A DNA stretch of 64,000 nt, taken from Candidatus Parcubacteria bacterium (GTDB lineage: Bacteria > Patescibacteriota > Minisyncoccia > Phycocordibacterales > JAKAEA01). Of this stretch, positions 9,779 through 39,712 are shown one piece after another. The stretch covers positions 1,126 to 65,125 of the forward strand of contig JAIFWI010000003.1 in the NCBI GenBank assembly GCA_019661945.1, read 5' to 3'. Below the pieces are notes generated by a model. The model saw only the letters and a list, made by a program, of their open reading frames with translations. It searched no databases and had not been told where the DNA came from. Position 1 is the stretch's first letter, and every line of letters starts with the position of its first letter. The position numbers were made by a program, and so were the translations under genes.

Positions 9779-9782
9779 CCAT

Positions 9783-10577: not shown

Positions 10578-10585
10578 TACAAATC

Positions 10586-11923: not shown

Positions 11924-11940
11924 CCATATACTAAAGGCAT

Positions 11941-18066: not shown

Positions 18067-18087
18067 ATGATGTATAATTAAATTACT

Positions 18088-18447
18088 ATGAAAATTTCAA
18101 TCGCATTTATTGGTGCATTACTTGGATTACTCATTGGTATTTTAGTCAATGTTTTTGTACTTCTTCCTCTCATCGCATTTGGTGTTTTACCTTTTTCACA
18201 AATTTTCGAAAATGGAAATGCAATAATTGGTGGATTTATTGGTGTCGTGGCAGTTTTTATAGTGCTTGGTTTTTTTATCGGTTCGAGAATTGATAAAAGG
18301 AGAAGTGGAAATCAATCGGGTACTTCTTTAGTAACAGAAAGTAGTGGTTCCCATTTGGTCCGGATAATCATTACACTTATAATTATCGCTGCGCTTATGT
18401 ACCTTGTTCTTATGTGGTCTGTGGGCAATTCATCCATATATAGGTAA
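18088..18447 (+). CDS. hypothetical membrane protein (119 aa)
   Basis: Several hydrophobic helices. It lies within the GT operon. Confidence 0.45.
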   Translation: MKISIAFIGALLGLLIGILVNVFVLLPLIAFGVLPFSQIFENGNAIIGGFIGVVAVFIVLGFFIGSRIDKRRSGNQSGTSLVTESSGSHLVRIIITLIIIAALMYLVLMWSVGNSSIYR

Positions 18448-18498
18448 TTGGTAAAAAAGGTTCTTTATTATTCCTCCAACCTACGATATGCTTAGCAC

Positions 18499-20776: not shown

Positions 20777-20777
20777 T

Positions 20778-21818: not shown

Positions 21819-22879
21819 AAACCATTTGCTTTTTTGGTATTTATGACAAAGACTATTCTCGAAATCGAGTTTTAGCCCGAGGTTTTGGTGAAAATGGTAT
21901 TGAGGTTATTCATTGTTCCGTAAATCCACGCGAAGTTCGAGGCATAAGAAAATATTGGAAATTGTTCAGGGAAGCCAGAAACATTAAAAGGAGATCATGT
22001 GATGCAATCTTAGTAGCATATCCAGGGCATACCGTTGTCTGGCTAGCAAGAATTATTTTCCCGCGCCAGCTCATTATTTTTGATGCATTTTTGTCTCTGT
22101 ATGATTCAAATGTATTTGATCGACAGGTGTATAAGCCATGGAGCCTCCGAGCGCGCAGAGATTATTTCTTAGATTGGTATAGTGTTCGATTGGCACATCA
22201 TGTACTTCTTGATACCCATGAGCATATCGCATATTTCATCGCGCATTATGGAGGCAATTCAGGTAAATATATTCGTGTTCCAATCGGAGCCGATGAAACC
22301 GTTTTTTACCCGCGGCAGCGCAGATCGCCCCAAGTAGGTCTGACCGTGCATTTTCACGGAAATTTTATTCCACTTCAGGGTGTAAAATATATAATCGAAG
22401 CCGCTCAGTTTTTGGAGGATGAGCATGTTATCTTTTCGCTTATTGGCTCCGGTCAGGATTTCAAAGAAATTCAAAAGATAATTCACGAAAAGCAGCTTGA
22501 GCGTACAGTTATCCTTCATGGTAAAAAATCACTTGAGGAGATACCCCAATTTATTTCGAATGCTGATATTTGTCTCGGTATTTTCGGAAATACTGAGAAA
22601 ACCCAGAGAGTTATACCTAATAAGGTTTATGAATATATGGCTATGGAAAAGCCTATTATTACCGCAGATACTGCCTCGATTCGAGAGCTTTTAACAGACG
22701 GGAAGAATGTGGTATTGTGTAAGGCAGCTGATCCTGAAGACTTGGCCCGTAAAATCATACTGCTCAAGGGGAATACTCTTCTTGCTCATACGATCGCAAC
22801 CGCAAGTCATCATTTGTTTAAGACATATCTGACATCAGCCGAAATTACTAAATCATTACTTCAGGAACTTCGTATATGA
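21800..22879 (+). CDS. glycosyltransferase, GT-B fold (GT4/GT1-like)
   Basis: C-terminal nucleotide-sugar-binding-like region (EKPIITADTASIRELL). The family assignment is weaker. Confidence 0.6.
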   Translation: MSGASIKTICFFGIYDKDYSRNRVLARGFGENGIEVIHCSVNPREVRGIRKYWKLFREARNIKRRSCDAILVAYPGHTVVWLARIIFPRQLIIFDAFLSLYDSNVFDRQVYKPWSLRARRDYFLDWYSVRLAHHVLLDTHEHIAYFIAHYGGNSGKYIRVPIGADETVFYPRQRRSPQVGLTVHFHGNFIPLQGVKYIIEAAQFLEDEHVIFSLIGSGQDFKEIQKIIHEKQLERTVILHGKKSLEEIPQFISNADICLGIFGNTEKTQRVIPNKVYEYMAMEKPIITADTASIRELLTDGKNVVLCKAADPEDLARKIILLKGNTLLAHTIATASHHLFKTYLTSAEITKSLLQELRI

Positions 22880-23874
22880 AAAAGCATACTATTCTGGTCA
22901 CTGGCGGAGCTGGTTTTATCGGTTCGCATGTAGTAGATGAACTTATAAAAAGCGGGCATCGTGTTGTTGTTCTCGATGATCTTTCGGGAGGATACAAGGA
23001 AAATGTTAATCTTAAAGCTCAATTTGTGAAAGGCCGTATTACCGATAATCGACTTATTAATAAGCTATTCAAGAAACATTCTTTTGAATACGTTTTTCAT
23101 ATAGCGGCATATGCTGCAGAGGGATTAAGTCACTTTATTCGAAAGTTTAATTATGAAAATAACCTCATCGGCAGTATAAACATCATTAACGCATCGATAA
23201 ATCATAAAGTTCGATGTCTGGTATTTACATCATCAATTGCAGTCTATGGAGCAAATCAGTTACCGATGCATGAAGATATGACACCAACTCCAGAAGATCC
23301 CTATGGAATTGCAAAACTGACGGTTGAACAGGATCTTAAGGCAGCCCATGAAATGTTCGGTCTTAATTCTATAGTATTTCGTCCCCACAATGTCTATGGT
23401 GAACGCCAAAACATTGCTGACCGGTATAGAAATGTCTTGGGTATTTTTATGAATCAAATAAGACATCGTAAGCCACTCAGCATATTTGGTGATGGTAAGC
23501 AGCAAAGAGCTTTCACTCATATTGCCGATTTGGCACCAGTTATTGCAGAATCAATTTTCAAACCTAAAGCCTTCAATCAAGTATTTAACATTGGCGCCGA
23601 CAAGCCCCATACAATTAATGAGCTTATTACTATTATTGGCAAAGCGTTTGGAATAGCTTCACCTAAGGTAAAATATTTTCCTGCCCGAAATGAGGTGAGA
23701 CAAGCATATGCTGATCACTCAAAAGCAAAAAAAATTCTTGGATATAAAGATGCAATCAGTTTAGAAGATGGAGTAACCCGTATGGCTGCATGGGTTAGGC
23801 AACAAGGTGTACCCATGAGCAAAAAATTCAAAAATATAGAGATTCAAGAAAATCTTCCTTCAGCTTGGAAATAA
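22876..23874 (+). CDS. NAD-dependent epimerase/dehydratase (extended SDR; UDP-sugar 4-epimerase-like)
   Basis: TGGAGFIGSH Rossmann motif, with a catalytic YxxxK-like region further along. Confidence 0.8.
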   Translation: MKKHTILVTGGAGFIGSHVVDELIKSGHRVVVLDDLSGGYKENVNLKAQFVKGRITDNRLINKLFKKHSFEYVFHIAAYAAEGLSHFIRKFNYENNLIGSINIINASINHKVRCLVFTSSIAVYGANQLPMHEDMTPTPEDPYGIAKLTVEQDLKAAHEMFGLNSIVFRPHNVYGERQNIADRYRNVLGIFMNQIRHRKPLSIFGDGKQQRAFTHIADLAPVIAESIFKPKAFNQVFNIGADKPHTINELITIIGKAFGIASPKVKYFPARNEVRQAYADHSKAKKILGYKDAISLEDGVTRMAAWVRQQGVPMSKKFKNIEIQENLPSAWK

Positions 23875-23875
23875 T

Positions 23876-24556
23876 ATGTTTTACTTTTCAAATTCAGGTA
23901 AGCGTGGATTTACCAATATTACCGCTGTTGATTATGATGCATATTGGAAAGAACGAGGTTTCAAAATAAATGAAAAGCTTAAGGAGCGGGAAGTCATCAT
24001 TCTAAATGAAATTCCGGCACATGCAAAAGTCTTAGATATTGGTTGCGGCAACTCTCTCTTGCCTGTAAGGCTCAAAGAAAAAGGATGTGATGTAACTGTT
24101 GCAGATATTTCGACAGTAGTTCTTAATGAATATAAAAAGATAGGGTTCAAGACATTACATATCCATCTTGAAGATACGGCTCATCTCCAATTTGCTTCAC
24201 CATTTGATTACATTATTATGAGTGAAGTTCTTGAGCACACTCGAAATCCTGAAGAGATCTTAACTGCTTTGAGACCCTATACTCGAACATTCGTCCTGAC
24301 TATTCCAAATAGTGCATTTTATCGATACCGATTTCACCTCATGTTTACCGGCACATTTATTCGTCAGTGGGTTCATCATCCTGGAGAGCATTTGAGATAT
24401 TGGTCGCATACTGATTTTCTAGCATGGCTCAATGCTTTTAATTTTAACGTTAAAAAAGCTGTCGCTTCCAATGGTTTTGATAGTATGGGTATCCCTTTTT
24501 ATACCTATTTCCCAAATCTTTTTGGGCACCAAATATGTTACTTTGTAGAAACATAA
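23876..24556 (+). CDS. class I SAM-dependent methyltransferase
   Basis: VLDIGCGNS motif I. Confidence 0.7.
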   Translation: MFYFSNSGKRGFTNITAVDYDAYWKERGFKINEKLKEREVIILNEIPAHAKVLDIGCGNSLLPVRLKEKGCDVTVADISTVVLNEYKKIGFKTLHIHLEDTAHLQFASPFDYIIMSEVLEHTRNPEEILTALRPYTRTFVLTIPNSAFYRYRFHLMFTGTFIRQWVHHPGEHLRYWSHTDFLAWLNAFNFNVKKAVASNGFDSMGIPFYTYFPNLFGHQICYFVET

Positions 24557-24565
24557 AAATCCGCT

Positions 24566-25690
24566 ATGAATATTTCCTACATTGCACATATTAGACTTCC
24601 AACGGAGAAGGCTCATGGTATTCAAACTATGAATACTTGTTATAGTTTGGGAACTAAAGGTGCTCATGTCGAATTGGCTATTCCTACTCGACGGAATACG
24701 ATTGATGAAGATCCCTTTACGTATTATGGTCTTAAAAAGAATTTCAAAATCAGGAGACTTTTTTCACCTGATTTGATCCGTTTAGGCATGTGGGGCTATC
24801 GCTTACAGCATGCCTTGTTTATTTTTTCTGCGATAGTATATGGGTTAAGAACTCGATCTGATATATATTATTCACGCGATGAAGTTATCCTCTTATTTCT
24901 CCGGTTTACCGGTAAACGTGTTGTCTGGGAAACCCATGAAGGGCGGTATACATTCCTTAGCCGAATTATTCTTAAGTACATAACGGGTGTGGTGTGTATT
25001 AGTAAGGGTTTACAGCAGTTTTATCAAGAAAAAGGAGTACCTGCCTCGAAGATATGTGTCGCCCATGACGCTGTCGATATAGCTAAATTTAATCTTTCGA
25101 TACGACAGCAGGAAGCTCGTGAGAAAGTTAATCTGCCAACTTATAAGAAAATAGTCACCTATACCGGGAGTCTCTATCTATACAAATGGAAGGGAGTAAA
25201 TGTATTACTTGATGCTGCAAAAAAATTGAATGATGATTATATCACCGTCTTGGTTGGAGGTAGTAAAAAAGAGATTGCCGCAATTAAAGAAAAATATCCT
25301 AGCAATACTATCATCTGTACTGGTCATCGGCCGCATAATGATATTCCATACTATCTTAAAGCTTCTGATGTCTTAGTTATTCCAAATCAGAAAGGTGATA
25401 TTATATCTGAACGTTTTACGTCCCCAATGAAATTGTTTGAATATATGGCCAGTGGCGTACCTATCGTTGCTTCACAGCTGCCTTCTCTCGAGGAAATTCT
25501 CTCATCGCATAATTCGGTATTAGTTCAATCTGATAATGTCCAAGCCTTGGCCGATGCTATCAAGCATATAACAACGGATCCCTTATTTGCGGAGGATATT
25601 CAAAGACAGGCGCTTCGAGATGTACACCAATATACCTGGGATCATCGAGCTGATGTTATATATTCTTTTCTGAAAACATGTATTTCATAA
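24566..25690 (+). CDS. glycosyltransferase, GT4 family
   Basis: GT-B architecture. The C-terminal motif EYMASGVPIVAS is GT4-like. Confidence 0.75.
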   Translation: MNISYIAHIRLPTEKAHGIQTMNTCYSLGTKGAHVELAIPTRRNTIDEDPFTYYGLKKNFKIRRLFSPDLIRLGMWGYRLQHALFIFSAIVYGLRTRSDIYYSRDEVILLFLRFTGKRVVWETHEGRYTFLSRIILKYITGVVCISKGLQQFYQEKGVPASKICVAHDAVDIAKFNLSIRQQEAREKVNLPTYKKIVTYTGSLYLYKWKGVNVLLDAAKKLNDDYITVLVGGSKKEIAAIKEKYPSNTIICTGHRPHNDIPYYLKASDVLVIPNQKGDIISERFTSPMKLFEYMASGVPIVASQLPSLEEILSSHNSVLVQSDNVQALADAIKHITTDPLFAEDIQRQALRDVHQYTWDHRADVIYSFLKTCIS

Positions 25691-26472
25691 AAAAATTGTA
25701 TTCCGATATAGTGTTTGCATTGCTCTATGGAGCGACATTTTTCTCTAAAGTAAAAATAGTAGCAGCCTCATTTCTATTTCCATTTAAAAGAATATTTAAA
25801 CTCACTAAGCCCAAAGCAATTCTGGTTACCCTGAAGGTCCTCGGAAAAGTCTTTCACTTTTACATTACAGATAGTTCTGATCTTGCTGTCTTAAAAGAAG
25901 TCTTTCTTTACAAAGAATATGTAGTTCCAGAAAAAGATCAACCTCACATTATTTTTGATATAGGAAGTCATGTCGGCGTAGCTGCATTATATTTCCATCT
26001 CATCTACCCTCAAGCAAAAATATTTGCCTTTGAACCTGATCCACAAACGTTTCGTAAGTTAGAGCAGAATACTAAACAGTTTCCGGAAATTCAGCCATTC
26101 AACATGGCTTTGAGTAACAAGGAGGGAATAAGTAAGTTCTTCATCTATCCCGGTAGTACTATTTCATCATCACTTATAAAAAGACAAGATAATCAAAAAA
26201 GTATTATGGTGCCGATTAGAACTTTAGAATCTGTCATGAAGCAAAACACGGTATCATCCATTGATCTTATAAAGTTTGACGTTGAAGGTTCTGAGTATGA
26301 ACTGCTTAGGGATTTTATTGGAAAATATAAGCCCAAAATGCTTATCGGTGAGGTACATCTGGACCTCATGTCTGTACCCGAGCAGAGATTTATTGATATG
26401 TTTAACGGATATACTATTATAAAGAAACCGATTAATAAGTATCGATACATTATTAATGTAACTCAATCATGA
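25678..26472 (+). CDS. FkbM-family methyltransferase
   Basis: IIFDIGSHVGVAALYF...FAFEPDPQTF is typical of FkbM-type SAM methyltransferases. Confidence 0.7.
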   Translation: MYFIKKLYSDIVFALLYGATFFSKVKIVAASFLFPFKRIFKLTKPKAILVTLKVLGKVFHFYITDSSDLAVLKEVFLYKEYVVPEKDQPHIIFDIGSHVGVAALYFHLIYPQAKIFAFEPDPQTFRKLEQNTKQFPEIQPFNMALSNKEGISKFFIYPGSTISSSLIKRQDNQKSIMVPIRTLESVMKQNTVSSIDLIKFDVEGSEYELLRDFIGKYKPKMLIGEVHLDLMSVPEQRFIDMFNGYTIIKKPINKYRYIINVTQS

Positions 26473-27197
26473 ATATTAAAGATACTAATTTTTTCAATAA
26501 AGAAAGCTTGATATATTCAGAAAAAAGATATCCGGCCATTGCTAAGAGCTACACCCAATTTTTCTTTAAGGAACGTCTGAGGCTTACCCTTAGTATTTTG
26601 AAAAGGATAACAATAGAAAAAAAAGATCTTTCTCTTTTAGAGATTGGTTGCGCCGACGGTGTTGTTTTAAAAGAAATACAGGCTACACTTCCTGGCACAT
26701 TCTCTAGTTCGATTGGTATCGACATTTCACCTGAAATGATTAGAACTGCAGAGGAGAAATACGGCAGTACAGGCATTGTGTTTAAGGACAGGGCAATATA
26801 TTCGGATACTACCAGGAAAGATTGTATTATTGAAATTGGGGTTATTAATTATGCCTCATTGAATGAAGAGCTTGATTACATATTTTCACATCTTGATAAT
26901 AACGGTATTGCCATAATTTCTTTAGCCGGCACCGGTTCGTTGTGGGATAGAAGAAGAAAGACTGCCGCAGGATTTAAGACATTCCTATCATACCAAGAGT
27001 ATGAAAAGGCTATTACGCAGAAATTTACTATAGTCCAGAGCCTTCCTGTTGGTTTGCCCATACCGCTTATCTGGAAAGCTCCGTTTGTAGGACGTATTAT
27101 CGAGTCTAGTGTAGAAAAAATAGCACGGCCACTTGTACCCAGCCTTTTTCACGAAAAGATTTACATTCTTAAACTCGCACCCAAGAATCAGGAATAA
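26469..27197 (+). CDS. class I SAM-dependent methyltransferase
   Basis: LLEIGCADGVV motif I. Confidence 0.65.
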   Translation: MNIKDTNFFNKESLIYSEKRYPAIAKSYTQFFFKERLRLTLSILKRITIEKKDLSLLEIGCADGVVLKEIQATLPGTFSSSIGIDISPEMIRTAEEKYGSTGIVFKDRAIYSDTTRKDCIIEIGVINYASLNEELDYIFSHLDNNGIAIISLAGTGSLWDRRRKTAAGFKTFLSYQEYEKAITQKFTIVQSLPVGLPIPLIWKAPFVGRIIESSVEKIARPLVPSLFHEKIYILKLAPKNQE

Positions 27198-28074
27198 GAT
27201 CTTTAGTGTTAATATCTGCGCCGAACCATCTTTGAGGGGCGATAACTATTTTTTGCTTATTTTGATTAAGCCAGGCTCCCCACCATGAAAAAGAACTATT
27301 TGCTACGATATTGTGTTTGCACATGCTCATGAGGAGGAGTTCTTCAGGACCAGGAATATTATTTTTTGATACATAGGTTACATTCCCAGGAATAGCGAGT
27401 TCCGATTCCACCCAAGCAATATCGTCTGAAAAAACAAAAAAATGAGGGGTGCTGATGTGGGAGCATATATATGTAATAGCTTTTTGGTAATATTCAGGTG
27501 AACAGGTACCATGTTTCTGGTTGGTATTCGAATTGCTGACATAATCTCCGCGCCGGACATGAATTGAAATTGCCTGCGTTTTACGTATGATTTCTTGTAC
27601 AAGCTTAGCAGGAGCCGAAAATTCATGTTTGAGACTGAATTCATTCCTGATAATTTCTTCGATTGACTGGAAATATTTTTCGCTCTGCCATATTCCTGAA
27701 ATATAGCTGTTATCACGTATCGCCTCAGTCATTTCTTTCTGGAAAGTGAAAGATGGCTCAAGAATAATTTTCCTTAGATTGAGAGGTTTGTGTGCATCGA
27801 TTATTCTATATATCCTCCGCAAAGAGATCTGTAAAAAGCTTTTATCATACATTTTATTGAAACCAAGATTCTTTTTATCTTGAGTTGAAGCTTCTGCTAG
27901 AGATATCTTGAATTTGTGTAACTCAAAAGTGCGTTTAGCTTCACCAGACCCAATATTAGTGTAATAGTCGGTATCAAGCCTAACTTCAAGGCCGGTTTTC
28001 TCTTTAATTGCTCGGGCAAAGGCATATTGAAACATTTGGTTGCCTAGTCCGCCTGAAATTCTGACAATGATCAT
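27169..28074 (-). CDS. alpha-1,2-fucosyltransferase, GT11 family
   Basis: GT11 hallmarks are present: GGLGNQMFQYA, IHVRRGDY and SSFSWWGAWLN. Confidence 0.85.
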   Translation of the reverse strand: MIIVRISGGLGNQMFQYAFARAIKEKTGLEVRLDTDYYTNIGSGEAKRTFELHKFKISLAEASTQDKKNLGFNKMYDKSFLQISLRRIYRIIDAHKPLNLRKIILEPSFTFQKEMTEAIRDNSYISGIWQSEKYFQSIEEIIRNEFSLKHEFSAPAKLVQEIIRKTQAISIHVRRGDYVSNSNTNQKHGTCSPEYYQKAITYICSHISTPHFFVFSDDIAWVESELAIPGNVTYVSKNNIPGPEELLLMSMCKHNIVANSSFSWWGAWLNQNKQKIVIAPQRWFGADINTKDLIPDSWVRV

Positions 28075-28075
28075 A

Positions 28076-30763
28076 TTATTTGAAGTATGTACTATATTTC
28101 TCTTTGTTTTCTAAGATATATTTAGGCAGATCGCTTTCATCAGTCCAAAATGTAAATGTTTTTCTGCCGATAAAGTCCTGATTGTTCATGATTTTGTTCT
28201 CAATATCTGATTTTATGTCTGTTGTATTATATTCCTGATGACCATATGATTCGAGCTTTTTTCTTATTTGATCTGCTCCGCCCATATTCGTGAAATGCCA
28301 TCCGCCGTTTTGTAAGTATATGTATTTGGTTTTACGTGCAGTTCTGAGGTGATTGAGGCAGGCATCTTTAATATTTTTATACTGAGTAACCAATGTTCCT
28401 GCCCAAGGTTCATTTGAGCGATTATTAAAGTAGTAGGCATATACTTTTTGACGTAACTTAAATATATCATTTTTACTGTAATCTATGAGCAGCTGTGGGT
28501 TCCATATTTCATCAACATCACCCACGAAGCATATGTCATTTTCGTTTAAACCAACCAAAGCTTTTTTAATGGACTCTTTTTGGTAAAACTCTTTGAACCA
28601 ATGAATTGCCCCCTTTGCTATGTTATTACTCGTCAGTGAATCGTTGATGATTTGTTTATCTAAAGCACTCATGTTGGGATTGTGCTTCAATCTGTCTCTC
28701 AATTCGTCTTGATTTTTGGGCACATCACGAGTGACATGGTGAATGATTTTATGCTGCCACTTTTTAAATCGATCTTTATTTTCTTCAAAATACAGTGGCT
28801 TAGGCTTTCCAGAAAATGTTTCCGTTGCTTCTACGATTACGAAATAATCTACATAGGGGTCAAGGATTTGCATTCGAAGTTCAAGTAAATCAAATTCATT
28901 TAAAAATGTAACAACATCATATATCTTAATGTTTTTTCTATACTGAGCCATTTCCTGCGGAGATAGCCAAGATTTTTTTGCCTTATATTCATTGATATAT
29001 TCCCGAGCTGTCTTTATTTTTTTCTTAAAGAAATAAGATATATGTGAAAATTTCCTGGCTTTCTTTAAGGCAGTGCGTATTAATGGTTTCATCGATGGTG
29101 GAATTCTTTTCCGAATAGAGACCGGAACTTTTTCCTTAAATAAGGTAATGGCATCAGGCGGCTTAATCATGGTCATATCTGGATCAATCGGGCGTAGCAT
29201 AGTGGCTGATGGTTCAAAACTTGAAGCCCATATGGTATGAAGTGCTCTTTCGACAATATATGCTTCACCCGGAAAAAAGACATAGGAAACAATTACTCTT
29301 AAATTCTCATAAAAAACCTTAGGAAATTTGAGAATATGGGCTTTAGGTACGATATACATTGCTCCCGGAGCAAATCGGGTATATCTAGGCAAAATTGGGT
29401 GTCTAAAGCAGAATTCAAGAAAATCATTATAGCTGTCAAAATATTTTAAAGGATGACCGGGAGCTTTGAGGTATAAACTATTATTGATTTCACAAAAACC
29501 GCCATCGGCAGAGAAGAAACCTTTGGGCCATTGTGGATTATGCATCTTAATATCTTCAAGTGACGTAAAGTACTCATTATTCATTACTCTCTCAAAATAC
29601 TCTCGTCGGACGTGCCGTGGAAACATATTGCCTTTGCCGAAAATAGTCGTCTCTGGCAAGGCATCATAATTATCTATAATAAATGTCAGATAGTCGCTGA
29701 TATTATGCCCGGTGTGTTTGCTTCGTATTACCTTGCTTATATCAATAGTTTTTGGGTATTCACTTTTCTCGCTTTGATCATAAATTACATAGGTATCGGT
29801 GAGGTCTGGAATCCAGCGTATATCATTATTGTAATGTGAGACAACAAGAAAATTCTTATGGATCCTGGGAAAAAAGTATTCCTTATGAGTGTTAATGTAC
29901 TCATCAAGTTCTTTTCGGCATGATTCTGCATTTTGCAAGCTTCCGTTTCTATCCTGATACATCCAGCCTGAAATGATATTATAGCTGCAGCCCCAATAGC
30001 CGTCTGAGGTATTGTACTGAGACCAATATTTAGGCGCAATACAATATCGCAGATCTTTATTAAGCCAAGCAGGCAGGCAGGCAAAGCTCGAATTCGAAAG
30101 AATGAGATATTTAGCATTTTTAACGATAACGTAATCTTTTGAAATACTGAAGTGAAAAACGTCATAATTGGGAAAAAACTTCTTAGCAGTTGCCACATCA
30201 TCGGTAATAACCACAAATGTTAAGTTTTTATTTACCTTGAGTGTGTTTTTAATAGCATCGTCCCAATATTTCTGGGGAAGGAACACTCTTTTATTTTGAA
30301 CGTACTCATTACCGCGAAAATTAATGACACAGATGTTTTCATCTGCGTAGTCATAACATTCATGCTCTTCTTTTACTTTGAGCCATTCTCGGATTTCGCC
30401 TTTTCGGTGCAGGATATACTGTTCATCCTGCATGACCCCGTCTATTTGAGTATTATCCGGAATATCGACAAGATGCTTGTCGAACGTTCGAATATCAACC
30501 CCATTTTCGGGATGAACAATTTTCCGCTCAACATAGTAGTTTTTTATACCTTCTGGCAAGGAAGTCGGTGGTCCACCCTCGGGACCTTTTCCGCCGATAA
30601 CTACTCTACCAAAATCGAGATTGAAAAAATCAGCTCCTTTAAATTTCTCAGGAGATTTGATGCCAAATTCATAACCTTTGTCCTTAGCAATAACCCGTGT
30701 GGTGACGTAACACCACAGCTGATTTCCAAGCCCCTGGCCATTGTATAGTTCCGTAACGATCAT
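28076..30763 (-). CDS. multidomain glycosyltransferase: N-terminal GT11-like domain, uncharacterised middle domain, and C-terminal GT17-like (bisecting-GlcNAc-transferase-like) domain
   Basis: N-terminal GT11 motifs: GQGLGNQLWCYV, NFRGNEY and NSSFACLPAWLN. C-terminal GT17 motifs: NEFDLLELRMQILDPYVDYFVIVEATETFSGKPKPLYF, GDVDEIW and GGWHF. The protein is 895 aa. Confidence 0.75.
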   Translation of the reverse strand: MIVTELYNGQGLGNQLWCYVTTRVIAKDKGYEFGIKSPEKFKGADFFNLDFGRVVIGGKGPEGGPPTSLPEGIKNYYVERKIVHPENGVDIRTFDKHLVDIPDNTQIDGVMQDEQYILHRKGEIREWLKVKEEHECYDYADENICVINFRGNEYVQNKRVFLPQKYWDDAIKNTLKVNKNLTFVVITDDVATAKKFFPNYDVFHFSISKDYVIVKNAKYLILSNSSFACLPAWLNKDLRYCIAPKYWSQYNTSDGYWGCSYNIISGWMYQDRNGSLQNAESCRKELDEYINTHKEYFFPRIHKNFLVVSHYNNDIRWIPDLTDTYVIYDQSEKSEYPKTIDISKVIRSKHTGHNISDYLTFIIDNYDALPETTIFGKGNMFPRHVRREYFERVMNNEYFTSLEDIKMHNPQWPKGFFSADGGFCEINNSLYLKAPGHPLKYFDSYNDFLEFCFRHPILPRYTRFAPGAMYIVPKAHILKFPKVFYENLRVIVSYVFFPGEAYIVERALHTIWASSFEPSATMLRPIDPDMTMIKPPDAITLFKEKVPVSIRKRIPPSMKPLIRTALKKARKFSHISYFFKKKIKTAREYINEYKAKKSWLSPQEMAQYRKNIKIYDVVTFLNEFDLLELRMQILDPYVDYFVIVEATETFSGKPKPLYFEENKDRFKKWQHKIIHHVTRDVPKNQDELRDRLKHNPNMSALDKQIINDSLTSNNIAKGAIHWFKEFYQKESIKKALVGLNENDICFVGDVDEIWNPQLLIDYSKNDIFKLRQKVYAYYFNNRSNEPWAGTLVTQYKNIKDACLNHLRTARKTKYIYLQNGGWHFTNMGGADQIRKKLESYGHQEYNTTDIKSDIENKIMNNQDFIGRKTFTFWTDESDLPKYILENKEKYSTYFK

Positions 30764-32166
30764 ATCCTTCCAAGCAATTTCTTAATTCGAAATTTCAGCA
30801 TAAAGAACCGAGGCATGACTTTTTTATTGTCGTGAAAACCAAAGGGTTCTAGGTCGGAATCCTCTAGACTTTTTTCACAACTAAATTTTGCTGCCACGGA
30901 TACCGGCGCAAATTTTATACCAGCATCTTCCAACTGCTTTCGATAATAGACACACATAATCCCGTCCTCATTGTAGAAACCGGTGCCATTGTCAGTAAAG
31001 GGCAGATTCATATCATGAAGTATTCGGAGCATTCTTTTGCTTCTCAATGAGAATCCGCCGTTTCCAACCCGGACATTGACGCCTTCATTGGTAAAATGGA
31101 CATTTTTTGGCCAAGGCGCACCAATATAGTCATACTTTAAAAATTCATAATCCCATTTATGTGGTCGGAGAATATAGGCGTTATTATGGACGATGATGAT
31201 ATAGTCGCTATCAATATATTCCCATAGATGATAGGCCATAAACTTACTGTAGTCATTTTTGTTTTTTGGATCTTTGCTTTGAAGTTGACCGGGCTTACAC
31301 TGTTTAAATGTGATTTTAGGATTCAAATTCTCTGGTTTTGTGTGTGAAATGAGTACGACATCATGAAAGCGCATACCCTGCATTGAAATCTCAAGGGCTT
31401 TCATACCGCTTGTTGGATCAATGCCGGATACCGCTACGAGGGTTACATCTCTGGTTGTCTTCTCATTAAACTTTTTACCGACATAGTCGAGCTCGTGATT
31501 AACTAATTCATTCGTTATTTCTGTTTGCGAAGTTTGATGACGGCCTATTCTATTCACGACACTAATAGTATTAACAATTTTTGGTTCTCCGAATTTGTCA
31601 TAGCAGCGCTTATAGTAATCGACATCCATGTACCACTTGAGGTTTACATCAAAGAGCAAAGGATTTTGATTCTTAATGGTTAAGACCGAAGGGGAACTGA
31701 TAGTATTTCTGCCGAGGTGAATCTTTTGATTGTATTTTGGATAAAACGGTCTAAAGAATTTCCAGCCGTTTTTAGTATGAATACAGGCAGTGACGAGCCA
31801 GGTATCTTTATTAAGATCAAAGTTTTTAGCAATAACCGCTAGAGCATCCTTGCCATATAGAAAATCGTCGAGACAAAGAAGTTTGAGAATTTTTCCTGTA
31901 CCATGTTTGATAACATTATTAAAGTTTCGGCACATTCCAATGATCGGATCATTGTTTTTATGATACTCAATACTGAGTTTATCTTTATAGGCATTGCAGA
32001 CATCCCTGATGGCACTGTCTTTGGAATAATCAGATATAACTACATTAAAGTCTGTAAACGTCTGCTTGAGCAGAATATCAAAATTATACTTCAAAAACTT
32101 CGCTCCTAATCCGTGCATCTCATATGTCGGAATACACACGCTTATCAATGGATTTTTTTTACTCAT
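30760..32166 (-). CDS. GT2-family glycosyltransferase fused to a C-terminal uncharacterised domain (possibly DUF5672-like)
   Basis: ISVCIPTYE... D.S GT-A motifs are present at the N-terminus. The C-terminal ~200 aa carry a GNGGFSLRS motif. Confidence 0.7.
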   Translation of the reverse strand: MSKKNPLISVCIPTYEMHGLGAKFLKYNFDILLKQTFTDFNVVISDYSKDSAIRDVCNAYKDKLSIEYHKNNDPIIGMCRNFNNVIKHGTGKILKLLCLDDFLYGKDALAVIAKNFDLNKDTWLVTACIHTKNGWKFFRPFYPKYNQKIHLGRNTISSPSVLTIKNQNPLLFDVNLKWYMDVDYYKRCYDKFGEPKIVNTISVVNRIGRHQTSQTEITNELVNHELDYVGKKFNEKTTRDVTLVAVSGIDPTSGMKALEISMQGMRFHDVVLISHTKPENLNPKITFKQCKPGQLQSKDPKNKNDYSKFMAYHLWEYIDSDYIIIVHNNAYILRPHKWDYEFLKYDYIGAPWPKNVHFTNEGVNVRVGNGGFSLRSKRMLRILHDMNLPFTDNGTGFYNEDGIMCVYYRKQLEDAGIKFAPVSVAAKFSCEKSLEDSDLEPFGFHDNKKVMPRFFMLKFRIKKLLGRI

Positions 32167-33043
32167 ATAATTTTTTGATACCTTCTTTTATTGAGACTAA
32201 TGGTTTCCATCCCGGAATTTTCTGGCCCTTACTCCACGGTATCATAACTTCTCGCGGTCGGTAGTCTTTCTTGCTCCAATTAATGTTGAGTTTAAATCCG
32301 GTAGTCTGTTCGAACAGTTCAGCCAGTTTCTTTAATGACATCCGCTCATTCGATGTGATGGCAAATGATTTTCCTTTAAGCTTTTTCTCACTGTCTTTAT
32401 TCAGAAGTTCGATCATTGTGGCGTATCCCTCGATAACATTATCAACAAAACTCATATCAAGGATTTGTTCACCAGGTGACATATCAAGTGGCTCCTTGGA
32501 TTTGCTTATCTTAAGCCAGAGATTAAATATCTTTGATCGGGTATCATTTGGTCCGAAAGTATCACTGAGCTTAATAGTTACAAAATTAAGCGCTGAAGTT
32601 TCAGTATAATACTTTGCAATATCCTCAAATGCTTGTTTCGTTGCGGCATAGAGGTTAACCGGTGAATACTCCGCATCATTATAGTGCTGCCAGAATGTGC
32701 CGGTATTTATAAACCAAGGAATTGAACTTTTAACCGAGGCTTCGAGTACAGCCGTAGAAAAATAGACATTAGAATCAATCAAGTTCTTAATATCTTCAGA
32801 TTTGTGCTGGGCCAGAAAGAGGGAAGCTAAATGGATAACCCCGTCAAAATGTTCTGTCTGCATATGTGAAATCAAATCAGTGACACTGTCGTTAAAGACA
32901 TGGAGCGTAACGTTTTCTTTTTTTAAAGTATCTGTGTTAGTGCTTGGCCGGACTAGGACATGTACAGAGTGATTGTCTGTAACTAATCTTTTAATCAGAT
33001 GACTGCCAATGAATCCGGTTGCACCTGTGACTAATAGTTTCAT
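32159..33043 (-). CDS. NAD(P)-dependent sugar epimerase/reductase (SDR), candidate CDP-dideoxyhexose reductase/synthase
   Basis: LVTGATGFIGSH Rossmann motif. It is co-operonic with the rfbF/rfbG/RmlC-like genes. Confidence 0.7.
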   Translation of the reverse strand: MKLLVTGATGFIGSHLIKRLVTDNHSVHVLVRPSTNTDTLKKENVTLHVFNDSVTDLISHMQTEHFDGVIHLASLFLAQHKSEDIKNLIDSNVYFSTAVLEASVKSSIPWFINTGTFWQHYNDAEYSPVNLYAATKQAFEDIAKYYTETSALNFVTIKLSDTFGPNDTRSKIFNLWLKISKSKEPLDMSPGEQILDMSFVDNVIEGYATMIELLNKDSEKKLKGKSFAITSNERMSLKKLAELFEQTTGFKLNINWSKKDYRPREVMIPWSKGQKIPGWKPLVSIKEGIKKLYE

Positions 33044-33046
33044 ACG

Positions 33047-33595
33047 TTAGGCTTTATAAATAAAAGGGGATTTAAATTCAGCCAAGCTTGGAAATTCCTG
33101 GTCACGTTTTGAAACTATAGGGTGGGCTACAGGCCAGTTAAAACCAAAAGAATCAAATCTAATACCACCTTCATGTTCGGCGCTGCGCATGGTCGACTGT
33201 AAATATGTTGTGCATGAATTATCCTTGAGAGCTAGAAATCCGTGGGCAAATCCAGAAGGAATGTAAATCATCCGGTGATTTTCACTTGATAATTCAACCG
33301 TCTCATACTGTCCATATGTTGGTGATCCTGTACGTAGATCAACAACAGCATCGAGAATTGCGCCAGAGGGCACATATACGAGCTTGGCATGATCTTGGTT
33401 TGGAATTTGAAAATGCATGCCGCGGATGACATTCTTTTTAGAAATGGAAAAAAAGCTTTCTTCAAATATCGAAACAAGGCCATGTTCCACAAACGTATTT
33501 TTGTGGAAAGGTTTTGTGAGCAGGCCGCGTTCGTCGCTGAAGACATCAGGTTCAATAATATATAAGTCTTTTAATTTTGTTGGTATGATCTTCAT
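33047..33595 (-). CDS. RmlC-like cupin sugar-nucleotide 3,5-epimerase
   Basis: dTDP-4-dehydrorhamnose 3,5-epimerase family motifs are present, including RGLHFQ-like (RGMHFQ) and YIPSGFAHGF. The protein is 182 aa. Confidence 0.8.
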   Translation of the reverse strand: MKIIPTKLKDLYIIEPDVFSDERGLLTKPFHKNTFVEHGLVSIFEESFFSISKKNVIRGMHFQIPNQDHAKLVYVPSGAILDAVVDLRTGSPTYGQYETVELSSENHRMIYIPSGFAHGFLALKDNSCTTYLQSTMRSAEHEGGIRFDSFGFNWPVAHPIVSKRDQEFPSLAEFKSPFIYKA

Positions 33596-34692
33596 TGTGT
33601 AGCCCAGGCAACACGTGCCCGTTTTGCGTTATTAATATACTCCTCAAGATCCTGTTCAGTTACCAGTTCTTTTTGAACATAAAATTTATTATACCAAGTC
33701 ACCGTTCTCTCGAAGGTCTTGTGGCTGTTCCAAATACTTTTCCATTTAAGTTTTGTGCGGGCTTTCTTTGAATCAAGCATCAGAAAGCGGTCCTCATGAA
33801 ACGCGTGAGGATCTTCCTTTATTTCATACATAAAAGAATCCCAATGTGTTTTTGCATGTTCAATAACTTTGTATACGGGAATGGCATGTTCATTTGTTGG
33901 CCCAAAGTTCCAGTTATCAGCAAATTCTTTATGACCCTGCAGTAATTTTGAACCAATATGTAAATACCCGCTCAATGCTTCAAGGACATGCTGCCATGGC
34001 CGAGTTGCTCGGGGAAATCGAATGGTAACAGTACGGCCTTTACTAGCTGCCTTCATAAGATCCGGAATCAATCGGTCAGCAGCCCAATCACCACCGCCGA
34101 TGACATTACCAGCACGAACATTGGCGATAAGCGTAGTATGCTTTTTACCGTAGTCATCCGGATTAAAATAAGAATGTCTGAAAGCATGAGAGACAAGTTC
34201 AGCGGCACCCTTTGATGCACTATATGGATCATTGCCGCCCATTGGATCAGTCTCAATATAGCTTTGAGCTTTCCCAGTATTGCGGTAACACTTATCGCTT
34301 GTAATATTAACAATAGCTTTGATATTTCCAACCTTGCGAGCGCTTTCGAGAATATTTACAACTCCCATAATATTTGTTTCAAACGTGTTCACCGGGTCAA
34401 CATATGACAAGCGGACAATAGGCTGGGCGGCCATGTGAAAGATGATATCGGGCTTATATTTTTTTATTGTAGACAGGAGTTTCTTTTTATCGAGGACATC
34501 ACCGGTAATAGATTTGATTGGGAGTTTGAGAAGTTCAAAATGGCTTGGTGTTGTTGGAGTATTTTTTGAATATCCAATTACTTCCGCACCAAGTTTTGTG
34601 AGCCATAACGCCAGCCATGAACCTTTAAATCCAGTGTGGCCGGTAATCAAAATTTTCTTTCCTTTATATACGTTGTTGAATAATCCTTTCAT
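33592..34692 (-). CDS. rfbG: CDP-glucose 4,6-dehydratase
   Basis: ILITGHTGFKGSW..L and overall RfbG/DdhB-like SDR features over 366 aa. Confidence 0.8.
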   Translation of the reverse strand: MKGLFNNVYKGKKILITGHTGFKGSWLALWLTKLGAEVIGYSKNTPTTPSHFELLKLPIKSITGDVLDKKKLLSTIKKYKPDIIFHMAAQPIVRLSYVDPVNTFETNIMGVVNILESARKVGNIKAIVNITSDKCYRNTGKAQSYIETDPMGGNDPYSASKGAAELVSHAFRHSYFNPDDYGKKHTTLIANVRAGNVIGGGDWAADRLIPDLMKAASKGRTVTIRFPRATRPWQHVLEALSGYLHIGSKLLQGHKEFADNWNFGPTNEHAIPVYKVIEHAKTHWDSFMYEIKEDPHAFHEDRFLMLDSKKARTKLKWKSIWNSHKTFERTVTWYNKFYVQKELVTEQDLEEYINNAKRARVAWATQ

Positions 34693-34707
34693 GCAGTAAG
34701 ATACATA

Positions 34708-35484
34708 TTATTTCCAAGTTTTCCAAAACGCTTTGCCTTCATTCCATAATTTATTGAGATATTTGAGATCTCGTTCTGTATCGACACATTCCCAATTTTT
34801 TAAGTGCTTATATACCATGATTTCTCCGGCGGCGGCCGCTTTCTCGAAAACATCATATTCCAAGTCGCAACTTTCGTCATCAGTTGCATACTGCAACAAC
34901 TTTTTATTGAAGACAAAGAAGCCACCATTGATGAGCCCGGTGGTTGTCTGAGGTTTTTCTTTGAATGAAACCACTCGAGAATCTTTTTCAATAATTTCTC
35001 CGAAACGTGATGAAGGACGCACTCCAGTAATGGTCAGCATTTTGCCATGTCCCTTATGAAATTTAATGAGATCCTTAATGTCTATATCAGCAATACCATC
35101 ACCGTAGGTTAGGAGATTGATGTCATCATCAAGGTATTTTTCTATTTTTTTAAGCCGTCCGCCTTTTAGGGTATTGAGGCCAGTATCAACAAGCGATACT
35201 TTCCAATCCATTTCATCATGATCATTAAGAATTTTTGTCTTCTTTGTGCCAAGGTCAATCGTATAATCTGAAGCATGAACATGGTAATTATGGAAGTAGT
35301 TTTTTATGACTTCTTGCTTGTATCCGAGACATATAATGAAGTCTTTGAAATTGTAGTGTGAGTATATCTTCATGATATGCCAAAGAATCGGCTTATCGCC
35401 AATTCGGACCATGGGTTTAGGTATTTCTCCGGTTATGCTTCCGAGGCGCGTTCCATAGCCGCCAGCCAAGATAATCACTTTCAT
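34708..35484 (-). CDS. rfbF: glucose-1-phosphate cytidylyltransferase
   Basis: The N-terminus MKVIILAGGYGTRL..EIPKPMV matches RfbF/DdhA. A TTGCAA-16-TAGTAT promoter lies just upstream and there is no Shine-Dalgarno site. Confidence 0.85.
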   Translation of the reverse strand: MKVIILAGGYGTRLGSITGEIPKPMVRIGDKPILWHIMKIYSHYNFKDFIICLGYKQEVIKNYFHNYHVHASDYTIDLGTKKTKILNDHDEMDWKVSLVDTGLNTLKGGRLKKIEKYLDDDINLLTYGDGIADIDIKDLIKFHKGHGKMLTITGVRPSSRFGEIIEKDSRVVSFKEKPQTTTGLINGGFFVFNKKLLQYATDDESCDLEYDVFEKAAAAGEIMVYKHLKNWECVDTERDLKYLNKLWNEGKAFWKTWK

Positions 35485-35549
35485 AATAGGCCAATACTAC
35501 GATATTTGTAGCGGTTTGCAAAGAGTAGACTGTTCTTCATATAAAATAA

Positions 35550-35575
35550 AAACCCCGGCCTTTCGGTCGGGGATT
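35550..35575 (-). terminator. bidirectional intrinsic terminator (CCCCGGCC-TTTC-GGTCGGGG, flanked by A- and T-runs)
   Basis: The stem is 8 bp. On the minus strand it is followed by TTTTTATTTT. It sits just downstream of the DUF218 gene stop. Confidence 0.65.
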
Positions 35576-35577
35576 TT

Positions 35578-36240
35578 TTACAAATTATCGCGTTGGTGGT
35601 AGTAGGCAATGAGCTCATCGAGTGTAGCGTGCGGCATATACCCAGTACCTGATCGGTCTTTGTATTTCTCGACCCTCTGGTACTCAGCGGCGATCTGGGT
35701 GAAGAGATTGCCAGCGATCGTCGGGCCATTCATGACCATCTTTACTGCCGGAATGCCCCAGTTCACAATCTTGGGGGTTAGGGCATAGACTTTCAGCTGG
35801 ACATTTCGTACCTCCATGACGTACACGATTTGAAGCATGCACCGCAGGAGATGCTCGGGTTGGCTCATAATTGTCAGACTATCCCATTCCTGCTCTAGGG
35901 CCAGGGTAATGAGATTATCGCACTCTGTGCCCGTATGAACTGACGGTGGAATGAACAGAATGTCGCTTTCTTCAACACTCAAGCTACGGAGCCGGTCGAG
36001 CCATGCCTCATAACCCCCATAGGCAATGCCATGCTTTTTGCATTCTGCCGCGGTCATCTTGTTCAGGACAAGGCGTTTCGTCAGTCTGCCATGGAGCATG
36101 TTTCGCCCCAGCTTCAGCTCGATGTCATTTAGTTCAGTCTTCATCACCCCATGGATGAATAAGGCATCAGTCCGTGGCTGCTGGTCGGTAAGGATAAGGA
36201 GCATCGCTTGCATCATCGAAAGGGGACTCGATTGATTCAT
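35578..36240 (-). CDS. DUF218 (YdcF/ElyC-like) domain protein, GC-enriched
   Basis: Its architecture resembles DUF218, including TIMSQPEHLLRCML. A Shine-Dalgarno site GGAGG lies 6 nt upstream. GC content is well above the neighbouring genes. Confidence 0.55.
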   Translation of the reverse strand: MNQSSPLSMMQAMLLILTDQQPRTDALFIHGVMKTELNDIELKLGRNMLHGRLTKRLVLNKMTAAECKKHGIAYGGYEAWLDRLRSLSVEESDILFIPPSVHTGTECDNLITLALEQEWDSLTIMSQPEHLLRCMLQIVYVMEVRNVQLKVYALTPKIVNWGIPAVKMVMNGPTIAGNLFTQIAAEYQRVEKYKDRSGTGYMPHATLDELIAYYHQRDNL

Positions 36241-36293
36241 GACAGACCTCCAGTATGGATTTCTGCGGAACTCTTTCCTGACTGTATAACAGA

Positions 36294-37514
36294 TTAGTAT
36301 TTTGTCAAGAATTCCTCAAATGTTGCTTTGAGATAGGTAACTTGTTCTGAATTTAATCCATGGTGGCAGGCAATGACAAAGGCATTTTCCATGACGTTTT
36401 CAGTGTTTGGAAATTTATTTTGAGCCAACCGATGTGGAATTTTATTGAAACCGGGTTGCTTAGTTACATTACCGGTAAAAACTGGTCGAGTCTGGATATT
36501 ATTCGCTTCAAGGTGTGTCACTAGTTCTAGACGTGTAAACGGTGCATCTTTGGTGATTATAAGAGGAAAGGCCAACCAATTCGTCTCAGTCTTTGGCGTC
36601 TGAACAGCCAAAGTGAAATATTTATTATATTTTGTGAAAAATGCAGTCAGATCGGCAAAGTGTTTCTTCCGAGCCTTTGCAAATTTTGGAAGTTTTTTGA
36701 GTTGTTCTAAAGCAAATGCCGAAGAAAGCTCCAGCGGTAAAAAGTTATAGCCGATTTCACTGAAGATAAATTTATTGTCATACGGAATTCCGGCGAGTCT
36801 GGTTTTAAATCGGTTCTTCATCAGTTCCGAATTTTCCTTTTCGCCAAAGAGGGAAGATTGTCTACCCCAACCGCGTAACACCACTAATCGGTCTGCCCAA
36901 GCTGGATCATTAACCATAATCATTCCACCGCCGCCAGCACCGTTAATAATGTGTGAGCCGTAAAAACTTGTAGTTGTGATGTGAGAATAAGTGCCGGTTG
37001 GTTTGCCTTTATATTTTCCGCCAAGCGTATCACATGAGTCTTCAATAAACCAAAGCTTATGCTTCTTAGCTAGGGCTGCCAATGTATCCATCTGGGGAAT
37101 GTTTCCGATGAGCGAGGGGATCATTAAGGCTTTTGTCTTTGGTGTGATTGCTTTTTCAACCTCTTCAATATTTACAAGATAGGTTGCAGGATCAATGTCA
37201 ACAAAAACTGGTACTAGGCCCTTTTGAATAATCGGAGCGACAACGGTAGCGAATGTTAAAATAGGCGTAATAACCTCACTGCCAGGAGGTAATTGCAAGA
37301 GCTCAAATGCCAGTAAATTGGCTGAAGATCCGGAGTTGACCATGACGCCATATTTTTTGCCGAACATCTTAGAAATCTTTCCTTCAAACTCTTTAGTCAG
37401 GGCTCCTAAGGCAGTATTTCCCTTTAAAATTTTTACGACTGCATTGATTTCTTCCTTTCCGTGGGCCGAATGTGCATAAGGCACTCTGAGCTTCTTTCCT
37501 GTCTGTTTTTTCAT
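36294..37514 (-). CDS. rfbH: DegT/DnrJ/EryC1/StrS-family PMP/PLP-dependent sugar 3-dehydrase (RfbH/DdhC/ColD-like); the active-site Lys is replaced by His
   Basis: DegT-family fold. In SFYGSHIINGAGGGG, the position of the Schiff-base Lys is occupied by His, as in E1/ColD dehydrases. Confidence 0.7.
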   Translation of the reverse strand: MKKQTGKKLRVPYAHSAHGKEEINAVVKILKGNTALGALTKEFEGKISKMFGKKYGVMVNSGSSANLLAFELLQLPPGSEVITPILTFATVVAPIIQKGLVPVFVDIDPATYLVNIEEVEKAITPKTKALMIPSLIGNIPQMDTLAALAKKHKLWFIEDSCDTLGGKYKGKPTGTYSHITTTSFYGSHIINGAGGGGMIMVNDPAWADRLVVLRGWGRQSSLFGEKENSELMKNRFKTRLAGIPYDNKFIFSEIGYNFLPLELSSAFALEQLKKLPKFAKARKKHFADLTAFFTKYNKYFTLAVQTPKTETNWLAFPLIITKDAPFTRLELVTHLEANNIQTRPVFTGNVTKQPGFNKIPHRLAQNKFPNTENVMENAFVIACHHGLNSEQVTYLKATFEEFLTKY

Positions 37515-37515
37515 A

Positions 37516-38796: not shown

Positions 38797-38802
38797 ATAT
38801 GG

Positions 38803-39645: not shown

Positions 39646-39669
39646 TCACAGTAGCAGGGGTGTCACAAG

Positions 39670-39697
39670 TTGTCAAAAATATGCTACTCTATATACA
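39670..39697 (+). promoter_or_regulatory. candidate promoter (TTGTCA ... TATACA) in the divergent intergenic region
   Basis: Hexamers lie upstream of the ATG at 39713. Spacer assignment is ambiguous. Confidence 0.3.
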
Positions 39698-39712
39698 TTA
39701 TTTAATATTTAT

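Follow-up and report, generated by a model that had tools for sequence, protein, structure and literature searches.

A predicted trifunctional glycosyltransferase fusion in a surface-glycan locus of a Candidatus Parcubacteria bacterium

Introduction

Multi-module transferases are already well known from transporter-dependent glycan assembly, and the principle of such proteins is not new. In WbbB (Raoultella terrigena / Klebsiella O12), ORF6 of Klebsiella O7 and WbdA (E. coli O9a), several transferase modules, sometimes together with a methyltransferase, are contained in one cytoplasmic polypeptide; the corresponding operons also encode Wzm and a Wzt bearing a carbohydrate-binding domain, and the modules are variously split between single- and multi-module proteins (PMC11231755). 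A similar arrangement is found in a 64,000-nucleotide stretch of DNA from a Candidatus Parcubacteria bacterium (GenBank assembly GCA_019661945.1, contig JAIFWI010000003.1, positions 1,126 to 65,125), which is referred to here as the window and numbered from its first letter. An open reading frame (ORF) at positions 28076-30763 of the window encodes a protein that joins a GT11-related module (N), a DUF3431 module (M) and a GT17 module (C). In contrast to the systems above, for which no literature report of GT11-like, DUF3431 or GT17 modules was found, the fusion protein is built from these three modules, it lacks a convincing coiled-coil ruler, and its host belongs to the candidate phyla radiation (CPR). 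Terminators have been described for ABC-transporter-dependent systems (PMC11231755); the fusion protein contains no terminator domain, and an FkbM methyltransferase is fused in variant homologues.

It is proposed here, with moderate confidence and on the basis of sequence comparisons and predicted structures, that three consecutive genes of a widely conserved surface-glycan operon are joined in this ORF as a Rosetta-stone fusion, and that its product is most likely a cytoplasmic, membrane-peripheral, trifunctional glycosyltransferase. The observations behind this proposal are the identities of the domains, their pattern of fusion and fission, the synteny of the loci that carry them and the conservation of signature residues. 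The features of the fusion gene are as follows.

28076..30763, minus strand: tri-domain glycosyltransferase fusion, whole ORF including the stop codon
29873..30763, minus strand: N module, residues 1-297, GT11-related with a fucosyltransferase-type fold (Pfam, hhalign, Foldseek and score class)
29174..29863, minus strand: M module, residues 301-530, DUF3431 with a predicted GT-A-like fold (Pfam PF11913, AlphaFold2, Foldseek and conservation)
28964..29173, minus strand: M-C linker, residues 531-600, basic and poorly conserved (composition and model)
28079..28963, minus strand: C module, residues 601-895, GT-A domain of the GT17 family (Pfam PF04724, invariant columns and Foldseek)

The fusion gene and its product

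The ORF consists of 895 uninterrupted codons and a stop codon on the minus strand and encodes an 895-residue product; a reading on the plus strand was rejected, as its translation is full of stops. All of the motifs that the preliminary description had quoted for an 895-residue fusion are present: GQGLGNQLWCYV at residues 9-20, NFRGNEY at 148-154, NSSFACLPAWLN at 224-235, NEFDLLELRMQ...PLYF at 622-659, GDVDEIW at 748-754 and GGWHF at 820-824. NCBI holds an identical protein under the title 'DUF3431 domain-containing protein [Candidatus Parcubacteria bacterium]'. The same three-domain layout is found in about 32 further 90%-identity clusters from independent metagenome assemblies, at 50-73% identity, and this shared, uninterrupted layout indicates that the fusion gene is real and conserved. 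Furthermore, the signature residues of the N, M and C modules are invariant among 32 full-length homologues.

The gene is tightly packed into its operon. The fusion gene and the GT2+DUF5672 gene upstream of it overlap at their start and stop codons, respectively (ATGA), a Shine-Dalgarno-like sequence (GGAAGGA) lies just 5' of this start, and a stand-alone GT11 gene begins 1 base past the fusion-gene stop. The adjacency of the fusion and this GT11 gene had been noted before with the fusion placed immediately after GT11; the order is the reverse, as GT11 is downstream in the direction of transcription.

The protein contains three independently folding modules, all of them modeled with high confidence. 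The whole-protein model has a predicted local distance difference test (pLDDT) score of 86.7, and the prediction of transmembrane segments was negative over the full length of the protein. Searches against the sequences of solved structures, by phmmer with the whole protein and by profile for each module, returned nothing meaningful, and a search of NCBIfam found no family for the fusion protein and none for the adjoining GT11. Foldseek matched the whole model to two tandem GT-A bifunctional polymerases, the Pasteurella heparosan synthase PmHS2 and human chondroitin synthase CHSY3-CHPF, over 580-780 columns, which is too long for one domain. The fusion protein nevertheless differs from these enzymes in that the TM scores over the query are low (0.10-0.15), the families are unrelated and its linker is disordered and basic. 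Among viral proteins, the whole model is matched best in structure by an 887-residue multi-domain protein of Chrysochromulina ericina virus CeV-01B (A0A0N9QAD0_2; BFVD, E=1e-21, about 1049 aligned columns), and multi-domain proteins of Sylvanvirus and Solumvirus likewise match it; multi-transferase fusions with related modules seem to exist in giant viruses.

Fusion and fission in related genomes

An alignment scan of species-representative genomes with the N module gave matches in 380 genomes, of which the best 80 loci were examined. Most of these 80 are from Patescibacteria, and the others come from Thiobacillus and other Thiobacillaceae, Citrifermentans bremense R1, Polynucleobacter, Elusimicrobia, Chitinophagaceae, Limisphaerales and Lachnospiraceae (including Suilimivivens aceti). 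Module profiles run over the 80 loci detected every combination of fusion as well as separate genes.

N, M and C as three separate adjacent genes: many of the 80 loci; in C. bremense (locus L061) they lie at 10001-10993 (N), 10984-11841 (M) and 11881-12852 (C)
N-M fusion: 10
N-C fusion: 14
M-C fusion: 9
N-M-C fusion: 8
C fused to GT11: 5

The layouts N-M, N-C, N-M-C and N-FkbM-C also occur among the top 120 protein homologues. The same modules are thus separate, adjacent and syntenic genes in other phyla and occur in every state of fusion, which is why the ORF is regarded as a Rosetta-stone fusion. Because the architectures interleave on the tree of N modules, both fusion and fission must have recurred. 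Complete three-way fusions were seen in CPR-type metagenome-assembled genomes only; one such record bears the unchecked label Gammaproteobacteria.

The partners of the N module vary in constancy. A C module is present in 76 of the 80 loci and an M module in 51, a homologue of the GT2/DUF5672 protein in 78, and canonical GT11 in 68 by phmmer or 60 by weak matches to the N profile. Methyltransferase genes often lie between M and C, and some CPR proteins carry an FkbM methyltransferase as a fused domain that separates N from C. One contig of the latter kind (L081) also encodes Wzm/Wzt together with the multi-module transferase protein. At 9770-11954 the same contig carries methyltransferases of the NDP-sugar C-methyltransferase type (Methyltransf_13/14) and of the TylF type, which points to deoxysugars with methyl branches or O-methyl groups in the surface glycans of CPR bacteria.

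The GT11-related N module

The N-terminal region had been described as GT11-like. This likeness stands, and the module is not classed here as a canonical GT11. The N fragment scores 21.7 bits against Pfam GT11 (PF01531; E=1.4e-4), under the curated cut-off of 23.9, and four homologues score just over it at 24.4-32.2 bits. Comparison by hhalign of a profile of 118 N modules with the adjoining canonical GT11 gave a probability of 97.9% (E=3.9e-13, 154 columns). When the N profile is used for scoring, the results are bimodal, as N modules score 338-566 bits and the canonical GT11 genes of the same loci 23-65 bits. This bimodality places N, by its sequence, in a distinct GT11-related subfamily rather than in canonical GT11, from which it differs in its sub-cut-off Pfam score, its altered motif I and its own score class.

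The module resembles the bacterial GT11 alpha-1,2-fucosyltransferases of the FutC/WbsJ type, of which the adjoining GT11 is one, in its G-x-G-N-Q motif, in NSSF..AWL and in one Arg of motif I. The N-terminal GxGNQ motif of GT11 is present as G9-Q-G-L-G-N-Q-L16 and the C-terminal motif (NSSFSWW.AWL) as N224-S-S-F...A-W-L234, both of them invariant or nearly so; hhalign aligns NSSFACLPAWLN of the N module with NSSFSWWGAWLN of the adjoining GT11. N retains only part of motif I, namely a single Arg (R150), the Tyr and the acidic residue, within a subfamily motif NFRG(G/N)EY, and N148, F149, R150, G151 and Y154 are invariant across the subfamily. The structural comparisons agree with a fucosyltransferase fold, as the best solved-structure matches are FUT8 (GT23; 6vlf, E=9e-5) and POFUT2 (GT68; 5foe and 4ap6), with a Foldseek probability of 1.0, and phage 'Fut1_Fut2_like' and GT11 models match the N region with TMt values of 0.68-0.70.

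The DUF3431 M module

A third domain of about 250 residues and of unknown family had been described between the two transferase regions. The domain is present (about 230 residues), and its family is a known one, as it matches Pfam DUF3431 (PF11913) with 39.2 bits as a fragment and 34.4 bits within the whole protein (cut-off 25; E=8e-10). The AlphaFold2 model of M has a pLDDT of 91.8, and nearly all of its best Foldseek matches in the PDB are GT-A transferases or related nucleotidyltransferases, all of them weak (best E=3e-3). The top-scoring ones are GlfT2 (probability 0.97-0.98), EXT1/2 and BoGT6a.

Across 116 diverse DUF3431 members the conserved polar residues are K377, N379, E425, N427, E500, E505 and R506. 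The sequence K377-G-N379 occupies the position of the DxD motif of GT-A enzymes, and K377 and N379 are each at least 80% conserved over these members. GT-A enzymes that work without DxD are known from family GT14 (PMC7185993), and the PDB matches of M include a bacterial GT6 transferase that is metal-independent (4ayj).

A profile built from M matches 2549 50%-identity clusters at E<=1e-3, and elsewhere DUF3431 shares a fused polypeptide with GT2, with GT17 (in the reverse domain order) or with Gly_transf_sug DXD transferases. Two very long proteins from Logan assemblies, P0219 (3030 residues) and P0266 (2271 residues), contain 3-5 copies of DUF3431 and many ankyrin repeats, along with Gly_transf_sug / TcdA-TcdB-type DXD glycosyltransferase domains, and their architecture looks like that of an effector. 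Literature searches on DUF3431, PF11913, DUF5672, and GT17 combined with O-antigen found no functional reports, and the earlier view that the protein had probably not been characterised is borne out, as no functional literature was found for the fusion protein or for DUF3431.

The M-C linker and the GT17 C module

The linker between M and C contains 20 Lys/Arg and 4 Asp/Glu residues. Its pLDDT is low at residues 534-548 and 566-575, and it contains one predicted helix of 41 residues (556-596). Among homologues the linker varies from 22 to 93 residues and its sequence is not conserved, and it has no hydrophobic segment. On these grounds it is an unconvincing coiled-coil ruler, and it was rejected as a membrane anchor.

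The assignment of the C-terminal region to GT17 was borne out by the domain scan, with 95.8 bits for the C fragment against Pfam PF04724 (E=3.5e-27; cut-off 26) and 89.3 bits for the whole protein. In the model, D749-V-D751 directly follows a beta strand (744-749), and D749, D751, E752 and W754 are invariant in the 32 full-length homologues, as is GGWHF (820-824). The C region matches predicted phage proteins annotated as GT17 (Foldseek; TMt 0.78-0.87, root-mean-square deviation 3.1-3.3, E down to 1e-17), and the C-module profile found no GT17 match among the sequences of solved structures. Taken by sequence, motif and predicted fold, the C module is a member of GT17.

The founding member of GT17, MGAT3 (GnT-III), is the beta-1,4-GlcNAc 'bisecting' transferase of animal N-glycans (EC 2.4.1.144), which acts on the core beta-mannose and in which DxD is essential. 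The C module shares with it the PF04724 match, the DVD motif and a predicted GT-A fold. It differs from MGAT3 in being a soluble bacterial module that is encoded in a surface-glycan operon and has no N-glycan substrate, and given the bacterial Wzm/Wzt operon it is very unlikely that the N-glycan core is its acceptor. No evidence was found for the suggested glycan-branching or bisecting activity, as C has only the fold family in common with MGAT3. GT17 is an inverting GT-A family that lacks the xED aspartate (PMC7185993). The statement that GT17 is rare in bacteria is not borne out, since a C-type module accompanies N in 76 of the 80 loci, which span many lineages; replicons of Azospirillum, Pantoea, Sinorhizobium and Bdellovibrio also carry C-type modules, and there are phage proteins with a GT17 annotation.

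The surface-glycan locus

The fusion gene lies within a surface-glycan locus of the ABC-transporter-dependent type, which comprises the following features besides the fusion itself.

16909..27197, plus strand: convergent block of six GT4 genes, an epimerase and three methyltransferases (MetW-like, FkbM and class I)
27169..28074, minus strand: stand-alone canonical GT11, conserved partner (Pfam GT11 E=2e-34; 1-nt spacer after the fusion gene)
30760..32166, minus strand: two-domain GT2 + DUF5672 gene, the most constant partner (Pfam), directly upstream of the fusion
32159..37514, minus strand: run of CDP-sugar genes (Pfam and NCBIfam)
37516..39645, minus strand: exporter heading the minus-strand run, made up of the ABC ATPase Wzt, with its carbohydrate-binding Wzt_C domain, and the ABC-2 permease Wzm
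39596..41959, plus strand: 787-residue Wzy_C (O-antigen-ligase-type) and TPR protein, diverging from Wzm

The minus-strand run reads, in the direction of transcription, Wzm, Wzt (with Wzt_C), an RfbH-like 3-dehydrase, a 220-residue protein, glucose-1-phosphate cytidylyltransferase, CDP-glucose 4,6-dehydratase, a 3,5-epimerase-like protein, a short-chain dehydrogenase/reductase (SDR), GT2+DUF5672, the fusion gene and GT11; the six genes from the RfbH-like enzyme to the SDR reductase make up the CDP-sugar run. The locus holds at least 11 transferase domains besides the three modules of the fusion. The GT2+DUF5672 partner is also found split into genes of about 230-260 residues in other genomes.

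This gene set and order (27169-38796 of the window) is matched in loci of Thiobacillaceae, Citrifermentans bremense and Elusimicrobiales, which consist of an ABC exporter, glucose-1-phosphate cytidylyltransferase, CDP-glucose dehydratase, an RfbH-like enzyme, an epimerase, a reductase, GT2_DUF5672, N, M, in some cases a methyltransferase, C and GT11. The exporter of these loci is a fused ABC_membrane+ABC_tran protein, and Wzz or Wzy_C genes flank them.

The Wzy_C/TPR protein is a candidate for the enzyme that moves the exported glycan to its final acceptor. The listed TTG start of its ORF overlaps the start of Wzm by about 50 nt and is perhaps over-extended. A second large TPR protein (813 residues; 61415-63856, plus strand) is encoded near the end of the window. 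Directly upstream of the convergent block, the gene of a HerA / TrwB-type (type IV secretion coupling protein-like) ATPase (15188-16912, plus strand) overlaps the first GT4 gene. The G+C content is about 37% across the transferase genes (24001-32000) and about 40-42% in the flanks; such a dip is a usual signature of glycan loci, for which the exchange of cassettes may be a cause. The remainder of the window is occupied by ordinary CPR housekeeping genes, including those for Mur ligases, SecA, enolase and GatB. Elsewhere in the window, an IS200/Y1-transposase-like ORF (48079-48753, plus strand) adjoins a gene for a sigma factor of the extracytoplasmic function type (48879-49436), and an ORF at 1057-2070 (plus strand) encodes a membrane glycosyltransferase of the PMT family (protein O-mannosyltransferase / ArnT-like), whose match starts at profile position 63, so that the ORF is perhaps truncated or its start miscalled.

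Supply of the deoxysugar donor

The RfbH-like enzyme (36294-37514, minus strand) scores 349 bits against NCBIfam RfbH, under the cut-off of 423. It has a His where aminotransferases have the Lys that binds pyridoxal phosphate (SFYGSH), and it contains two cysteines only; from its sequence it probably lacks a [2Fe-2S] cluster. The features of the E1 and ColD enzymes point to the RfbH-like protein as a 3-dehydrase that is independent of an iron-sulfur reductase partner. The enzyme may thus be a ColD-like, reductase-independent 3-dehydrase that acts on a CDP-sugar, which fits the absence of an E3 reductase gene from the locus. The 220-residue ORF at 35578-36240 (minus strand) was considered as an E3 reductase and rejected, as neither Pfam nor NCBIfam has a match for it and only 2 of the 80 loci contain a homologue.

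The gene run suggests that a CDP-3,6-dideoxy-L-hexose would result after the action of the epimerase and reductase. A GT11 enzyme of E. coli O55 transfers colitose, a related sugar, and a CDP-dideoxyhexose is a plausible donor for GT11-type modules. The donor of the N module may be a CDP-dideoxyhexose rather than GDP-fucose.

Proposed function and alternatives

According to the proposed function, the three modules would act in turn on one acceptor linked to a lipid, undecaprenyl diphosphate, on the inner side of the membrane, and through its strongly basic linker the enzyme would stay bound to the anionic membrane surface. The N module would act as an inverting transferase for an L-configured 6-deoxyhexose or 3,6-dideoxyhexose, taken from a nucleotide sugar that is either the CDP-sugar made next door or GDP-fucose, and the C module would transfer a hexose or N-acetylhexosamine by means of its predicted metal-binding DVD motif. 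The M module would add a third residue without a metal, with K377 and N379 in place of DxD and one of E425, E500 or E505 as the base. The finished and probably methylated glycan would then be exported by Wzm/Wzt, where Wzt_C implies recognition of a mark at the end of the chain, and the neighboring Wzy_C/TPR protein would pass it to the final acceptor. For a compact CPR genome, the gain from such a fusion would be that modules which cooperate stay together and are made in equal amounts.

Several observations weigh against this proposal. There is no DxD motif in M after beta-4, where G376-K-G-N-M-F-P-R-H384 is found instead. The resemblance of M to solved GT-A structures is weak (TM 0.25-0.35, best E=3e-3), and its PDB matches also include CpsY (a Stealth phosphotransferase), CMP-sugar synthetases and IspD. 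When the profile of DUF3431 was compared with those of the GT17, GT2 and DUF5672 modules from the same loci, no similarity emerged, which indicates that M is not a diverged copy of a neighboring module. M is also missing from 29 of the 80 loci, and no M gene was called in the N-FkbM-C locus L081, which makes M an accessory rather than a core module. In the N module, motif I of GT11 (HxRRGDY) is changed to NFRGNEY, which aligns with HVRRGDY of the adjoining GT11. The predicted TM score (pTM) of the whole-protein model is 0.56, so the placement of the domains relative to each other is unreliable. No initiating phosphoglycosyltransferase was seen among the genes of the window, and no outer membrane or lipopolysaccharide is known from CPR bacteria.

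One alternative, which appears possible though rather doubtful, is that the protein is a true polymerase, in which the modules act repeatedly to build a trisaccharide repeat and the helical linker serves as a chain-length ruler, as in WbbB or WbdA/WbdD. A Wzm/Wzt exporter with Wzt_C is typical of the cytoplasmic synthesis of whole polymers by multi-module polymerases (PMC11231755), the 41-residue helix at 556-596 could be cast as the ruler, tandem GT-A polymerases are among the structural matches, and a Wzz-type chain-length protein flanks the Citrifermentans operon. Set against these points, the linker is short (22-93 residues), non-conserved and modeled with low confidence, unlike the known coiled-coil rulers. 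The same modules accompany fused exporters of the MsbA/PglK type in other phyla, and with at least 11 further transferase domains in the locus the three modules need not form a repeat unit alone. Polymerization as such is compatible with a trifunctional fusion, and it is the idea of a ruler that is weak.

It is unlikely, on the evidence at hand, that only N and C are transferases and that DUF3431 modifies or terminates the glycan, as an enzyme of the nucleotide-diphospho-sugar-transferase fold such as a phosphotransferase (of sugar phosphates or otherwise) or a nucleotidyltransferase. The lack of DxD in M and its matches to CpsY, CMP-sugar synthetases and IspD would be accounted for, as would the 29 loci without M and the N-MT-C variants, in which the slot between N and C is filled by an FkbM methyltransferase, itself a modifying enzyme. 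In characterised systems Wzt_C reads the modification at the end of the chain, and the Wzt of this locus carries this domain. The top-scoring matches of M are nonetheless true GT-A transferases (GlfT2, EXT1/2 and BoGT6a), and in Thiobacillus the FkbM methyltransferase is present alongside M and does not replace it. The repeated fusion of DUF3431 to glycosyltransferases of several families fits either reading.

Finally, it is extremely improbable that the gene is an artefact, in which mis-assembly or a frame shift has joined three genes, or a decayed gene with one or more inactive modules. The modules are indeed separate genes in many genomes, yet about 32 independent clusters, drawn from different assemblies, repeat the uninterrupted layout, the signature residues of every module are invariant among them and all domains model confidently. 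Where the preliminary description had suggested a processive or bifunctional enzyme, the evidence favors three operon genes fused into a trifunctional protein.

Biological significance

The fusions tie bacterial GT17, the GT11-related subfamily and DUF3431 to one pathway, and DUF5672 is tied to it by its neighborhood. They therefore provide testable predictions of function for two domains of unknown function, DUF3431 and DUF5672. The gene set is conserved across very distant phyla, and its culturable carriers include Citrifermentans bremense R1 and Suilimivivens aceti. A broader and speculative extension, which seems improbable in its entirety, would be that DUF3431, also widespread in fungi, founds a new metal-independent family of the GT-A type with K-x-N in place of DxD, and that the set of GT2/DUF5672, N, in some loci DUF3431, GT17 and GT11 builds one conserved dideoxyhexose glycan motif common to CPR bacteria, Proteobacteria, Elusimicrobia and Firmicutes.

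For the organism itself, the predicted pathway would mean that about 25 kb of a CPR genome is given over to a complex surface glycan, which is probably methylated and probably contains dideoxyhexose. A surface-glycan locus of this kind in a CPR bacterium is relevant to the interaction between episymbiont and host.

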